Source: Candidatus Woesearchaeota archaeon (lineage in GTDB: Archaea > Nanobdellota > Nanobdellia > Woesearchaeales > WAPY01). From it: a stretch of DNA of 64,000 nucleotides. Location of the stretch: assembly GCA_049700835.1 (NCBI GenBank), contig JBNAUL010000002.1, positions 272,275-336,274 of the forward strand. The letters are read 5' to 3'. Made by a program: the position numbers. How positions within the stretch are numbered: position 1 is the first letter of the stretch; each line of letters opens with the position of its first letter. Shown here one piece after another: positions 1-39,000 of this stretch.

Positions 1-3000
1 TCAATATCAGAATAAAAACCTACAATCTATTCTGCTATAGGAGTATAGACACCGCTGTTTAGTTTTTCATTAATATCATCTATTCTTTGCTCTAAATCAT
101 TGAGCATATTCCTAAACGAATTCTTTGAGTTCATAGCCACAAAAAAATCATAAAAGCAGATGTGTTTTATAAGCATTTTTGTAAAGGAAAATTTATATTT
201 GAATAGTAAGTTTTAAAAACAAAAATAGTAAACCAATAGAATAAAACAATTTTTTAAGGACCTGTAGCCTAGTCTGGAAGGGCAACAGCCTTCTAAGCTG
301 TGGGTCGAGGGTTCAAATCCCTCCAGGTCCGTTAGGAACTGGAGACCAGGAATGACTGAAAGGAATGACGCTNNNNNNNNNNNNNNNNNNNNNNNNNNNN
401 NNNNNNNNNNNNNNNNNNNNNNNNNNNNNNNNNNNNNNNNNNNNNNNNNNNNNNNNNNNNNNNNNNNNNNNNCCTCCAGGTCCGTTAGGAACTGGAGACC
501 AGGAATGACTGAAAGGAATGACGCTGCCTCCAGGTCCGTAACAAGGTGAAGGAACTGAAAACTAAGAATGACTAAAAGATTTGGTTTACTTTAAGTTCTA
601 AATTATCTATTTTTTTATCTACTACAAAATAACAATTGTGATAAGTATTTTTTACAATAAAAAAGGTTTTATATTTTCTAATCATTTTTTAAATTTGTGG
701 CAAGAATCAACTATGAAAGAAAAGAGATTTTATGTATAGAACAAAAATTTGAAGAACTTAGGAGATTCTATGAAAAGGTTTACCAAAATAATAAAGATGG
801 TCATTTTCATTTCAGCACTGCACAAGATTTAATTAAATTTAAAGAAAAGAATTCTGAGCAAAGAGATTTTGTTGAAAAAAACATTTATTTCTTAATAGGA
901 TTGGAAAGGTTAAAAGAAATTGCTGGTTTAGAAGAGAAAATAGTTTTCTTAGAAAAAGGAAACTTAAGAGAAATTGAGAAAAATGTTCAAGAAGAATACA
1001 ACTCAACCTATTATCCTGTTTGTTATATTTTGGACAAAAATAAAAAGAGATTAGTAGTAGCTAACTATGAAAAGAGTTTTCAGCAAGGAGGTCCTGAAAT
1101 AATTGTTCTTAATGAAGAATAGTATTCATTAAATTTTAACGAATAATTAAATTAAGATATTAAGCATTTTATTTCTAAAGGAAAACGAGAATGTGGTTAA
1201 AATCATTTTTATTATCAATATTTGAGCATAGCCCATGTTAGTATTATGTTAGTGTAATTTTTACTTATATAAGATTAATAAGCTTTATTAAAACCAAAGA
1301 AAACAAAACAAAGTAATTTTGTTTTCTTTTTAACAACCGAACAATAAAACTAATGTTTTAATAACAATTTGTGGTTAAAAAATGTGGCATCAATAAGAAA
1401 TGCTGTAAAGCAAAGAAAATGTAGAAATTATGAAACCTGTGTTCTTATTTAATAGTCTATACTTTACAACAACACTTATTAGGAGGACAAGATTCGTATG
1501 TTCTGACATCAAAGCATAGATATTCATATTTACATGTAAGATTATTAAGCCAAGTATTGCAAATATCGCACTTTTTATCAAATATTATATCTAAAAGTAT
1601 ACTATTCTTAACTATTAAGGTTATTTTTCCTTCATCGCATAACTCATAACAAATAAAATCATTTCCTACATAACTGGTATTTTGTTTTAATGATTGGTTT
1701 ATTTGAAGATTAGTTTTATTAAAATATGCTGCAACCCAACTTNNNNNNNNNNNNNNNNNNNNNNNNNNNNNNNNNNNNNNNNNNNNNNNNNNNNNNNNNN
1801 NNNNNNNNNNNNNNNNNNNNNNNNNNNNNNNNNNNNNNNNNNAAAACTACTACCATTATAACTTAATATAATGGCATCTGCTAAACCTGGGCTGCCTCCA
1901 GGTAGCAAACTATTATAACAGTTACGCATCACTAATCCTGGGCTGTTATTATTTTTAAAATAATTTTCAATTTTAGAATCGCATTTTGAAAGATTTCCAT
2001 TGCACAAAACAGTAAAAACGCTTTTCAAGAAATCACATTTTTTAGTGTTGTTGGATAGATTTATAGGACTTTCTTTAAAACAAAATATATTCGTTACTTG
2101 TTGATCTTGGATTTTATAAGTGATTGTGTAATTTTTTGTTAATAAAATGCATTCAGAAGTGTCAAACTTGCAATTATTGCATTTCAAATTTCCTCCTATA
2201 AAATTATAGCCAAGATTATCTTTTAAATCATAGCAATTTTTTCCATCTAAGTTATCTTTTTCACATTCCTCTCCAGAATCATAATTTATAACTCCGTTTC
2301 CGCATGTATTTTCACAAACTCCATTGTTGCAAAAACCTGTGCAATTATTGCACTTTGATTTTGCTTCATGATTTTCAATATGACAAACACATATTTCATT
2401 ATCTTTGCAATAAGATTGTGAATCATTGTATTTTTCTTCACAATGCAGTTCAACGCACTTATTATTGTAACAAACTTGTGTTTCTAAGCAATCCTCATTT
2501 TTTAAGCATTCAACGCACTTATTCAAATTATAATTGCAAACTCCTCCTTTACAGTCATTATTGGAAGTGCATTCAACGCATCTTCCTGTGCTAAAATTGC
2601 AAACTAGTGGAGAGCAATCATCATTAAAATAACATTTTTTAATACAAACCCCTTTTTCAGAGCAAAACTCATCTTGCAAGCATTCATTATTTTCCTTGCA
2701 AAATCTTGTTTGCGGAGGAATTTCTTCTAAATAAACCTCCTTGCCCAAACCTACTAATAAAATTTCTGCCTCCTCCTTTGTTATTGGAAAACAATATATT
2801 CCTTCTCCGACAAAAACCTCTCCAACGTAAAAGCTTTCACGGTTTGGAAACAAAAAAAGGTTTTTATTAATTCCTTCTTTTATTATAGAGCAAACCAGGG
2901 CTTTTTCTTTTGAATATACATCAGAACTTGGGGCTAAACTGCAATACAACTGCTTAAGGTTTTCATCATCTAATAAGGACTTATCAACAAAACACATGTA

Positions 3001-36000: not shown

Positions 36001-39000
36001 AGCTCTCCTGGCCTTATCGAATATTTTTCCAGCAACAATTCTTCATCGACCTCGTCCATCCAATCGTAAAAAACCATTGCTGTTTTGAATGCATTCAGGA
36101 AATCATCGTAATCTTCATCATAAGAATTTGGAATTTCATCTAAGATTTCATCCTCAAATTTTGAAACAAGCTCCTCGTAATCGTCAAACTCCTTAACTTT
36201 TACATTCAGATAAGGCCTGAGTTCAAGGGTGTGAGTGCATAGTTGTATTAAGGAGAACTCTGTTTTCTCCTTTTGCTTGAGCAAGTTCTTTATTAGGTAA
36301 TGCGCTGTCAGAGGATCCAAATAGAGTTCTGCAACCCTCTTTCCAAGAAGAGTTGCGGTAAACTTTTCCTCTTTGCTAAACTCCAATGCGCTTGCAAAAT
36401 CATCTGACTCGCTCTTTATAAAATTCCATCTCTTTAGCAGGTTCAAATTGCTGTTAATTAATTCTTCTATTCTTTTGAAATCCCCAAACTGAAAAGCCCA
36501 TAATGTCTTCCTGAAAAAATCAAAAATCTCTGATTTTGTAGTTGTTATTCTCGTTGCTATAAGACTTAAAAGGTATGTCCTGAAAACAGGTTCAACAGCA
36601 AGTTTTGAATAGATATCCTCGGGCTCTCCAAGAATGAAGTGTTCAACAAGACCCATTATCTCTGATTCAGAACTTGCAAAACATATTGCTTGACCTTCTT
36701 TATCATACTTTGGTCTTCCAGCTCTTCCGAACATCTGCTGAACTTCAAGAACAGGAATCCAATTCATTCCTCTTGGAGAATACCTTTTTAAATCTCTTAC
36801 AATCACCCTGAATGCAGGAAGGTCGACTCCTAAAGCTAATGTAGGCGTGCAGCAAATAACCTTTATTACTCCTTTTCTGAAATTCTCTTCTATGAGATGC
36901 CTTTGCTTGGAAACAAGCCCTGAGTGATGGAATGCAATTCCTGATTTTAGGCAATAAGCGAGTTTCTCGCATTGTTTTGTAGGTCTTGGTAGAGCATTCA
37001 AAGCTTCCTCAGCCAACTTTTCATGATGCTCTGATTTCAATTTAAGATTTTTGGCAATAAACTCTGCTGTTTTCTCAGCCCTCTGCTTTGTATTGACAAA
37101 AACTAGTGCCTGTTTTCCTATTTTTATCGTGTCATAAACTATGTCCAAAAGTTCGTCCTCAAATTTTTCCTCTATCTTAATAGATTCTTTCTTTGCTCTC
37201 ACTTTAACTTCACTTTGCCCTGATTTTTTTGCTCTGCATTTCAACAGAAAGCGCGCTCTATTTAAAATTCTTTTTTATTTTTAGCAATTTTTAAAATTAA
37301 AATTTTTTATAAAGCGTGAAAAAGAAAGATTTAAATATAAGTTTTTTTTAAAAAACATTTAATGAATATTACAAGCGAACAAACAGAAAAAGAATTCTCA
37401 GAACTTTGTGCTTTGTGCAAATTTAGGGAGGAGTGCAACGACTATGCAATGAGCAAGAATTCTAACATTAAAGGATTTACTGTTCTCATAATAGATTGCC
37501 CTAAATTTGAAAAAGAAGATTAAATTTGTTTTATTAAAAATTTTAATTAAATTACAAAATAAAAAATGAATAAAAAATGAATAATTAAATATGATTAATA
37601 AATAGCCCCGCCCGGATTCGAACCGGGGTCCCAGGCTTTCTTCAAAATCAAATTTTAATCAATTTTGATTGCACTTAAATTTCTCCAAAGGCCTGGATGA
37701 TTGGCCGCTACACCACGGGGCTGAAAGCATTTTTGATCTAAAAGCTCTTAAAACCAGTTATGAAACAAGCATTCATGCAAATTAAAAAAAGAATCGATTT
37801 TGTATTTAAAAAGGTTTTGATGAACTGAGTGTATTGAACGAACAATACTAAAAATTTAAATACTTTGTTTGTTTATAGAACAGCAGGGGGCTTTATGAAA
37901 GGCATATTCATAATGGTTGACGGACTTGACGCTTCTGGGAAATCAGTCATCATAAATGCTTTTAAGGACTGGTTTTTCTCAAAAAAAATGAAGGTTTTCA
38001 GTTTAAAGGAATACTGCGAAGAGCACAAAACTCTTCCAGAACCAGAAGAGATTGAAAATTTTGATGTTATTGCAAGCAATGAACCTACTGACGCTCTTGT
38101 CGGAAAGGCAATAAGAGATGAACTAATAAAAAAAAATTCTCGGGAGTACAGCGCTGCAACAATTGCTCAAGCATTTTCTCTTGACAGGGAAATACTATAC
38201 AAGAGGATTATAATTCCTGCACTAAAGCAGAACAAGATAATTTTGCAAGACAGAGGAGTTGTTTCAACCTTTGTATATCAGCCAGTGCAAGAGCACATTC
38301 CGTTAAATGAACTTATAAAACTCCCTGGAAACAGACTGGCTTTGGAACACGCTCCAAACCTGCTTGTGCTGACAAAGGTTTCTCCAGAAGTTGTGATGGA
38401 AAGGATCGAAAAGAAAGGAATGAACTCTGCAACAATATTCACAAACCTCTTGTTTCAGAGAAAGATTTCTGAGAGATACAACAGTATATGGCTAAGGGAA
38501 TTGTTTGAAAGGTTTGGAACAAAGATTGTTTACATTTCAACAGAACCGCCTGCAACAGAAGAAGAGACAAAGAAAAGAGCGGTTGAGGTTTTGGAAGAAT
38601 TCTTAAGAACTTCTGGCAGAAATTTTGATTAAATTTTTTATTAATTGAATTAGTAATAAATAATTGATAAACAATCATTCAATTGAAAGATTAAGAACAG
38701 GCAAGCAGAACTAAAAGCATGAATAATAAAGATGTTCAAGCAAGAAATATTCAAAAAAATTTTCAAAATCTGATTTTTGATTAATTTTCAATTAAATTTT
38801 CTAATTAAGAAACTAAACAGATTTGTTTTGTTTGCCTTTTAATGCATCCTTGCTCATGCGCTTGAAAAACATTCTCACAGAATTTCGCTCTCTAACAATT
38901 CCTCAATCTCCTGATCTTTGCTCTCAATCAGCTTGCTGTCAAGCTCTTTTTGGCTCTTATCCTGCTTGTGCCCCTCTTTTTTTTCCTTAGAATCGAAGAA

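Follow-up and report, generated by a model that had tools for sequence, protein, structure and literature searches.

A Hel308 helicase encoded by two dispersed genes across the Woesearchaeales, a probable two-subunit enzyme

An SF2 helicase is usually pictured as one chain whose two RecA lobes close on ATP. Archaeal Hel308/Hjm (2zj2, S. solfataricus 2va8, A. fulgidus 2p6r) is one polypeptide of ~700-720 aa, whereas in the Woesearchaeota genome analyzed here the same five domains and all of the helicase motifs, in the same order, are distributed over a 222-aa and a 537-aa protein whose genes lie 42 kb apart. Does such a gene pair still specify one motor, and if so, how would the motor be put together? 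The window, a stretch of 64,000 nucleotides of contig C2, holds the gene for the C-terminal portion (C-half), and the gene for the N-terminal portion (N-half) lies before it (Table 1). In our reading, which we consider probable, Hel308 is here an enzyme of two subunits that are transcribed and translated independently, each from its own gene, and assemble non-covalently; the gene was split once, and both parts are kept by purifying selection.

Table 1. Features of the split Hel308; positions are those of the window unless a contig position is given
Feature	Position	Strand	Basis or remark
C-half of Hel308	35631..37244	(-)	537 aa counted from TTG
TTG start of C-half	37244	(-)	start of the 537-aa frame
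Alternative GTG start	37200..37202	(-)	codon 15 of C-half; alignment with relatives
Motif IVa FHHSGL, residues 105-110	36915..36932	(-)	alignment of 21 C-halves
Motif VI Q..GRAGRP, residues 170-178	36711..36737	(-)	invariant in 21 C-halves
β-strand after motif VI, residues 184-188	36681..36695	(-)	complex prediction, least-error contacts
Winged-helix domain 3, HTH_61, residues 203-277	36414..36638	(-)	Pfam
Ratchet domain 4, Helicase_dom4_arc, residues 331-455	35880..36254	(-)	Pfam
HhH domain 5, HHH_5, residues 462-513	35706..35861	(-)	Pfam
AT-rich spacer upstream of C-half	37245..37364	(-)	without RecA1 coding sequence
N-half of Hel308	contig C2:265533-266201	(+)	222 aa; 6 kb before the window

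As the genome-wide survey's note had described, the two genes are intact open reading frames on opposite strands, 41.7 kb apart on the contig. The N-half contains RecA1 and the first strands of RecA2 (Pfam DEAD, E 1.2e-32), and the C-half contains the remainder of RecA2, the winged helix, ratchet domain 4 and HhH domain 5 (Pfam Helicase_C, HTH_61, Helicase_dom4_arc, HHH_5). Each half matched solved Hel308/Hjm structures in PDB searches at E 1e-55 to 1e-94: residues 10-215 of the N-half align with residues 8-210 of P. furiosus Hjm/Hel308 (2zj2, 720 aa; E 4.6e-69), and residues 34-516 of the C-half align with residues 228-703 (E 1.1e-94). The complementary ranges reported in the note are thus sound, except that the C-half does not end at 669 but reaches ~703-713 through HhH domain 5. 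On the 739 positions of PRK02362, the NCBIfam equivalog for Hel308, the N-half covers 1-217 and the C-half 215-713; with scores of 289.1 and 455.2 bits neither reaches the cut-off of 887, nor do the scores of 239.2 and 326.4 bits for helicase_Hel308 reach its cut-off of 1200. The gene pair is Hel308 by descent, as placed by the trees described below, yet on these profile scores no member of the family in the one-chain sense. The genome, 98.66% complete in 4 contigs, encodes a single N-half and a single C-half and, within that completeness, no unsplit Hel308, the sole further match being an 895-aa Lhr; the nearest unsplit relatives share 57-63% identity over the N-half. The halves are annotated merely as 'DEAD/DEAH box helicase' or 'helicase'.

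The start of the C-half is uncertain, and is non-ATG either way. Counted from the TTG, the C-half begins at reference residue 197, whereas its relatives begin at 209-221; the downstream GTG coincides in the alignment with the ATG from which 18 of 20 relatives start, and is perhaps the truer start. The spacer upstream of the gene probably serves as the C-half's own promoter region. A scan for bacterial-type promoters and terminators, which is ill-suited to archaea, gave no more matches near the C-half than chance would. Motif IVa (F/YHHAGL), named as in PMC10484726, is a Hel308/HELQ signature.

Where the chain is cut was assessed by alignment with unsplit Hel308 of a sister order. The break lies in the same loop in all 21 genomes compared, which are of different families: N-halves stop at residues 212-222 and, in 20 of the 21, C-halves start at 209-221. 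In Hjm, domain 1 comprises residues 1-197 and domain 2 residues 198-399 (PMC2636818). Since domain 2 starts at 198, residues ~203-222 of the N-half belong to RecA2, and the cut, which the note had placed between the two RecA domains, actually falls ~20 residues inside RecA2 rather than at the domain border. The N-half therefore bears a strand that is predicted to dock in the β-sheet of the C-half. The split genes form one clade (SH-aLRT 97, from a quick tree search in which the concatenated halves could add slight shared signal at the junction), with unsplit sister-order genes as sister group and a single change on the tree; an earlier 126-row tree recovered the same clade with support of 76-84. 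Phylogenetically, the split has a single origin.

The distribution of the halves was determined in 201 genomes of the order, a sample five-fold larger than that of the earlier reader. An N-half match is present in 186 of these (E<=3e-51), from at least 136 of the families sampled; among the matches listed it lies in a frame of 210-350 aa in 150 of 150, and in a second draw all 103 same-order matches lie in frames of 153-350 aa. A C-half match is present in 185 genomes (E<=1e-40); the open frames around the 150 matches listed measure 357-616 aa in 149 cases and 769 aa in the remaining one. Combined, 176 genomes have both halves, 10 the N-half alone, 9 the C-half alone and 6 neither, which, together with the common break site (21/21), bears out the claim that the same break with dispersed halves extends through the order. 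The two genes never lie side by side: among the 12 genomes that carry both on one contig, the distance between them ranges over 3.3-332 kb, and 8 of these genomes have them on opposite strands, the other 4 on one strand. A second split within the C-half was considered and rejected for five genomes, as all four pieces in G073 and G037 end at contig ends, pointing to assembly breakage, and the two matches in each of G061, G041 and G068 share one frame. Among the C-half matches listed, those of G004, G019, G027, G034, G097, G122, G138 and G151 contain one or two in-frame stops. Outside the order, Hel308 is rare: it was matched in 4 of 31 genomes and, in one sister order, in 4 of 81 (G223 being counted in both samples). 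The frames of these eight matches are 648-744 aa long (711-744 aa in seven), and the genes are unsplit where complete.

Conservation was compared between the two proteins. Alignment columns of the 21 genomes have a mean identity of 67% in the N-half and 59% in the C-half. Invariant positions in the 21 N-halves include the RecA1 motifs T48-T55 (motif I, GKT), D147/E148/H150 (motif II) and S181-T183 (motif III), and those in the 21 C-halves include the RecA2 motifs IVa (F105, H106, H107, G109 and L110), V (T133-G139) and VI (Q170-P178). A single congeneric pair with dS of 0.43-0.59 gave dN/dS ratios of 0.061 (N-half) and 0.082 (C-half), and by this measure both halves are kept by purifying selection. 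Distances among N-halves correlate with those among C-halves (r=0.74), a value reached by none of 2000 label permutations and in keeping with co-inheritance of the two genes. N-half-only proteins with one or two inteins occur (P0019 and P0032), and an intein is usually retained where its host protein is produced and required. Of the ancient trans-encoded split that the note proposed, the anatomy, the conservation, the single origin and the purifying selection (dN/dS 0.06-0.08) are established; that the two proteins assemble, are active and serve in DNA repair is what we infer.

Complex prediction for the N-half with the C-half gave a score of 0.82, against 0.00 for the best of three controls. 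Because single-chain structures of Hel308 exist, this result may reflect the predictor's memory of them; the score measures likeness to Hel308 and not binding. Of 157 solved complexes, 116 reach the mark applied to such predictions, as this pair does, against 2 of 215 mismatched pairs. At least 97% of contacts agree between runs, with partner pLDDT of at least 87. The predicted contacts connect residues 205-221 of the N-half with residues 184-188 and 17-26 of the C-half; those of least error pair the N-half tail (208-213) with the strand 184-188 of the C-half, and the model places residues 243-252 of the C-half winged helix against the N-half's RecA1.

The enzyme would be built as follows. The N-half would supply RecA1, with motifs I, Ia, II (DEVH) and III (SAT), and the first β-hairpin of RecA2; the C-half would supply the rest of RecA2, with motifs IV, IVa, V and VI, and the winged helix, ratchet domain and HhH domain. 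The two would associate non-covalently: the N-half tail would extend the C-half's RecA2 sheet by one strand, and RecA1 would pack on the C-half winged helix. In SF2 helicases the motif VI arginines complete the ATP site, here with a RecA1 that is on the other polypeptide. Association would thereby restore the usual ring of Hel308 and an ATP site shared between the chains, one giving the P-loop and the other the motif VI arginines. A single event, at or before the base of the order, produced the split through a break in a surface loop ~20 residues into RecA2; the two genes have since moved apart in the genome, and purifying selection has retained both. As to why the split has been kept, a rather doubtful suggestion goes beyond drift: ATPase activity may need assembly, so that the supply of the RecA1 subunit gates unwinding against ATP-independent annealing and DNA binding, with the lobes held together by the donated β-strand.

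An alternative that we judge quite unlikely is that the halves are independent proteins, the C-half an ATP-independent DNA binder or annealer and the N-half a stand-alone ATP-binding module, with no motor rebuilt. Strand annealing is a known activity of Hel308, as described in PMC10484726 and PMC13623763. Either half had no conserved neighbours or operon partners, nor did the two genes share any, a flanking gene being common to at most 3 of 21 genomes. One half only is found in 19 of the 201 genomes, including G096 (N-half only) and G106 (C-half only), assemblies of ~20 contigs each that are 100% complete; their sister genomes, G187 and G192, carry the full pair, and assembly gaps are a possible source of the orphan halves. 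Against independence, both halves are retained in 176 of 201 genomes and are absent together from G006 (96% complete) and G176 (93%). (The unsplit Ski2-type paralogue that the note had seen in relatives is real: the one in G176 is a 649-aa DSHCT-domain helicase.) The motif V residues and motif VI arginines of the C-half and the P-loop and DExH residues of the N-half also stay invariant, which makes no sense unless they come together in a single ATP site, and the N-half keeps the RecA2 strand together with invariant W203, R204, P205, V206 and L208.

Covalent joining of the halves after expression, by a split intein or by RNA trans-splicing of the kind seen in the split tRNAs of N. equitans, is highly improbable. 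Inteins do occur in Hel308 genes, at the P-loop and at motif V, and trans-spliced tRNAs are reported in relatives of the lineage (10.64898/2026.05.13.725050). The break itself has no intein, however; the N-half tail and the C-half head together have the native loop length, and across the 21 genomes each half keeps its own codon at the break, a stop in the N-half or a start in the C-half. Pfam detected no intein domain in either half, and a search for an RNA-joining signal, comparing the N-half 3' with the C-half 5' flank, found none, the longest complement averaging 8.81 nt within and 8.85 nt between genomes. Inteins were also considered as the cause of the break and rejected, as those of relatives lie at the P-loop (N-half ~41-56), at a second RecA1 site and at motif V (C-half ~137-141). 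Finally, a Hel308 broken by recent rearrangement and now decaying, or produced by misassembly, could be read from the opposite strands, which fit an inversion that had one breakpoint inside the gene, and from runs of N in the contig, but this reading, which the note too had dismissed, is refuted by the conservation of the break (21/21 genomes, 136 families) and by the selection estimated for both halves, and Logan contigs from two runs in two studies (one of the runs may be the source sample) bridge the start and the end of the C-half with zero differences.

The two-subunit reading can be compared with other divided enzymes of small archaea. One of these is Lhr, a DPANN SF2 repair helicase that in Nanoarchaeota is encoded by two dispersed genes with no intein (N. 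equitans NEQ003/NEQ409 and Nst1 172/239; PMC3655853 Table 1). The Lhr split sites differ between the two species (PMC3655853), whereas Hel308 is cut at one site order-wide. In G221, a single-contig genome of 0.5 Mb from the same class, Lhr is cut at ~residue 603-612 of 895, behind the motor and winged helix, leaving the ATPase on one chain, whereas the Hel308 cut runs through the motor; Lhr is unsplit in the genome analyzed here. In N. equitans reverse gyrase, the cut reportedly parts the helicase-like from the topoisomerase portion, and the subunits are said to have been shown biochemically to cooperate. Like Hel308 it is a helicase-containing enzyme made from two genes (NEQ318/434, split at the same site in two Nanoarchaeota; PMC3655853 Table 1), but the cut described here lies inside the helicase core. 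Split-intein genes such as N. equitans DNA polymerase B, and the 'fractured genes' of PMC2677866, likewise yield one enzyme from two dispersed genes, but through protein trans-splicing, unlike Hel308. Dph1/2 is an informational gene split in Woesearchaeota, Pacearchaeota and others (PMC6349945), the same archaeal group but another protein, and that review has no mention of helicases.

Split genes are thus known as a kind in DPANN, and the Hel308 case is new to the papers searched, among which neither a report of a split Hel308 nor a link between Hel308 and Woesearchaeota was found. When archaeal Ski2-like helicases were surveyed, 60% profile coverage was demanded and partial sequences were discarded (PMC10946056), and organisms of this type can therefore be wrongly scored as lacking Hel308; Supplementary Table S1 of that survey and its 53 'partial' sequences set aside might include such halves. 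As a single-origin split, the character is a clean clade marker for the order within DPANN, the sister order having mostly lost Hel308 (4 of 81 keep it) and this order retaining it as two genes. If our reading is true, this would be a natural SF2 helicase with its motor lobes on separate polypeptides, fixed once across an archaeal order. A cut within the motor has been kept in at least 136 sampled families, and if the halves assemble, a covalent link between the lobes would be dispensable. The loop after the first RecA2 hairpin would then be a permissive cut site for engineering split or conditionally assembled helicases.

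The window contains only one of the two genes for Hel308 (Hjm), that for the C-terminal part (C-half). The gene for the N-terminal part (N-half) lies 41.7 kb away, and the two are on opposite strands. As the genome-wide survey's note had stated, both halves are intact ORFs, each an open frame with its own start and its own stop. Two runs, from two studies, gave contigs that cover the start and end of the C-half without difference; one of these runs may be the source sample. In a search of solved structures, residues 10–215 of the N-half matched residues 8–210 of 2zj2, the 720-aa Hjm/Hel308 of Pyrococcus furiosus (E = 4.6e-69), and residues 34–516 of the C-half matched residues 228–703 of the same protein (E = 1.1e-94); the next structure matches of the C-half were the Sulfolobus and Archaeoglobus Hel308. 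The NCBIfam Hel308 equivalog PRK02362 (739 positions) is covered at 1–217 by the N-half and at 215–713 by the C-half. Pfam assigned DEAD to the N-half, and Helicase_C, HTH_61 (winged helix), Helicase_dom4_arc (ratchet) and HHH_5 to the C-half. The C-half thus includes domain 5, which the survey's note had left out. The source genome (98.66% complete, 0.25% contamination, 4 contigs) holds exactly one N-half and one C-half; no unsplit Hel308 was found in it, and the sole other match was an unsplit 895-aa Lhr, another SF2 helicase.

Coordinates of the Hel308 halves, their neighbours and the compared features
Feature	Location	Strand	Remarks
Hel308 C-half	window 35631-37244	-	537 codons from TTG
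Hel308 N-half	contig C2:265533-266201	+	222 codons from ATG; outside the window, 6 kb before its first base
RIO kinase	L001:6211-6942	-	beside N-half
KH-domain protein	L001:7521-8192	+	beside N-half
Pseudouridine synthase	window 34911-35594	-	36 nt downstream of C-half
Thymidylate kinase	window 37865-38632	+	upstream of C-half
tRNA gene	window 37603-37722	-	~50 nt insert in anticodon arm; Rfam tRNA 42.7 bits, E 1.2e-7
769-aa frame with C-half match	G056:C56:6495-8051	+	~230 aa above usual
74-aa frame similar to N-half	G164:C64:27300-27521	-	70% identical to N-half residues 149-222
Unsplit Ski2-like helicase	G176:C3:95145-97091 (L085:446-2392)		649 aa; DSHCT (NUC185) domain, typical of Ski2/Mtr4 RNA helicases
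Split Lhr, first piece	G221:C1:889-2667	+	354 kb from second piece
Split Lhr, second piece	G221:C1:356602-357363	-

The break had been placed between the two RecA motor domains. Domain 1 of Hjm is given as residues 1–197 and domain 2 as residues 198–399 (PMC2636818), and in the alignment to 2zj2 residue 202 of the N-half corresponds to Hjm residue 197. Because this is the last residue of domain 1, the last ~20 residues of the N-half (about 203–222) are structurally part of RecA2; the invariant residues W203, R204, P205, V206 and L208 all fall within this RecA2-type tail. Since the tail belongs to RecA2, the actual cut is in the loop after the first RecA2 hairpin, not at the domain border.

The spread of the halves within Woesearchaeales was assessed in 201 genomes from 136 families, the source genome included. 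The N-half matched at E ≤ 1e-10 in 192 genomes, six of which had weak paralogue matches only, so that a true N-half (E ≤ 3e-51) is present in 186. The best 150 N-half matches listed were 55–70% identical (self-match aside), all in open frames of 210–350 aa; a second draw gave 103 matches from the same order, all in frames of 153–350 aa. The C-half matched at E ≤ 1e-40 in 185 genomes. The 150 C-half matches listed begin at query residues 2–138, mostly 20–33, and lie in frames of 357–616 aa with one exception of 769 aa; eight of them carry one or two in-frame stops. The exceptional frame, whose genome has its N-half on another contig, may owe its length to an extension or to open sequence upstream. 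Both halves were present in 176 of the 201 genomes, which bears out the survey's claim that the split is conserved across the order. This count takes in three genomes flagged unpublished (G132, G183, G112), without which it is 173 of 198; no other claim depends on them.

Only one half was found in 19 genomes (N-half alone in ten, C-half alone in nine), two of them 100%-complete assemblies (G096 and G106), and six genomes had neither. Neither half was found in G006 or G176; these two have another Ski2-like helicase, unsplit and with a DSHCT domain; frames of 652–657 aa similar to that of G176 occur in G096 and G006, and this helicase is absent from the source genome. In a member of the same family (G164), a 74-aa frame was seen besides a full N-half, and may be the remnant of a second N-half copy. 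Where both halves are on one contig (12 genomes) the distance between them ranges from 3.3 to 332 kb; eight of these genomes have them on opposite strands and four on the same strand. There were no conserved flanking genes, any one gene being common to at most 3 of 21 genomes. In a large protein collection, the N-half had matches at E ≤ 1e-40 in 3808 clusters of 122–389 aa; most of the best 120 measure 219–227 aa, and the named ones among these are only 'DEAD/DEAH box helicase [Candidatus Woesearchaeota archaeon]', '[Nanoarchaeota archaeon]' or 'helicase'.

Outside the order, Hel308 is mostly not found and is whole where present, since matches occurred in 4 of 31 genomes of a phylum draw (frames of 711, 744, 714 and 718 aa) and in 4 of 81 genomes of the order of G223, one of those four (739, 711, 711 and 648 aa, the 648-aa frame being truncated at a contig end). 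The protein collection has many unsplit proteins of 700–730 aa with 57–63% identity to the N-half; NCBI labels some of them Woesearchaeota, and on the tree they group with the sister order.

To map the break, N-halves and C-halves of different families, 21 of each, were aligned to the unsplit G223 protein. All 21 N-halves end at G223 residues 212–222, and 20 of the 21 C-halves start at residues 209–221. The exception is the source-genome C-half read from TTG (residue 197); a start at the GTG of codon 15 brings it into line with the others, and ATG is the start in 18 of 20 relatives. In a quick-search tree of 71 proteins, with the halves joined per genome, the 21 joined pairs formed one clade (SH-aLRT 97), sister to the unsplit sister-order genes (support 89); a tree of 126 rows agreed, at lower support. 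In neither half does any catalytic motif vary, and dN/dS in one congeneric pair was 0.061 for the N-half and 0.082 for the C-half (dS 0.43–0.59). Pairwise distances of the two halves were correlated (r = 0.74; 0 of 2000 permutations as high), which shows that they descended together vertically, not that they touch.

How the halves come together was considered next to two covalent routes. Joining of RNAs via complementary flanks was disfavoured, as the mean longest match between the N-half 3' and C-half 5' flanks was 8.81 nt within genomes vs 8.85 nt between genomes. A split intein was likewise disfavoured: there is no intein at the break and no intein domain by Pfam in either half, the N-half tail and C-half head together give the native loop length, and the inteins of relatives sit elsewhere, in the P-loop, a second RecA1 site and motif V. 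Two stand-alone N-halves, P0019 (716 aa) and P0032 (1295 aa), contain one and two inteins, respectively (P-loop, second RecA1 site), and end at N-half residues 220–221, the same end as the split N-half; split-gene subunits are therefore still intein hosts. With no intein at the break and no excess flank complementarity, non-covalent assembly is what remains, to judge from the sequences.

The predicted N-half/C-half complex scored 0.82, vs 0.00 for the best of three controls, a score that may merely echo the known fold because Hel308 was solved as a single chain. Of solved complexes, 116 of 157 reach the mark used for this score; of mismatched pairs, 2 of 215 do. At least 97% of the predicted contacts agreed between runs, with partner pLDDT of at least 87. 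The contacts of least predicted error join N-half 208–213 to C-half 184–188, the strand after motif VI; further predicted contacts join N-half 162–166 and 193 to the winged helix (243–252). What the score shows is a retained fit of the halves to the Hel308 architecture; it does not show binding.

The genes beside both halves are ordinary housekeeping genes. The tRNA gene, which shares the strand of the C-half and lies ~360 nt upstream of it, was not reported by ARAGORN. One contig of sequencing run X1 links window 37284 to 38620, so that 1335 nt, with the tRNA and the greater part of the thymidylate kinase gene, are absent from it; its shorter side is 21 letters only, and the contig probably stems from a repeat or a different organism. 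Window 34271–34718, which lies between the pseudouridine synthase gene and the ORFs that follow, is A-rich with short degenerate tandem repeats (periods 11–35 nt), of which the contig comparison passed over 34497–34577 as repeat; the long hydrophobic minus-strand 'ORFs' here are probably not genes.

Nanoarchaeota are known for split genes, and Lhr is among those in Table 1 of PMC3655853. In G221, a genome of the same class that consists of one 0.5-Mb contig, the Lhr cut lies near residue 603–612 of 895, behind the motor, and fits this published split. In that Lhr the ATPase stays on one chain, whereas in Hel308 the motor itself is cut, and the site is a single one throughout an order. A split Hel308 was not reported in the literature searched; such halves would have been filtered out of a 2024 survey of archaeal Ski2-like helicases (PMC10946056). 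The Hel308 split is real, of single origin, order-wide and under purifying selection, and its halves would most likely make up a two-subunit helicase.
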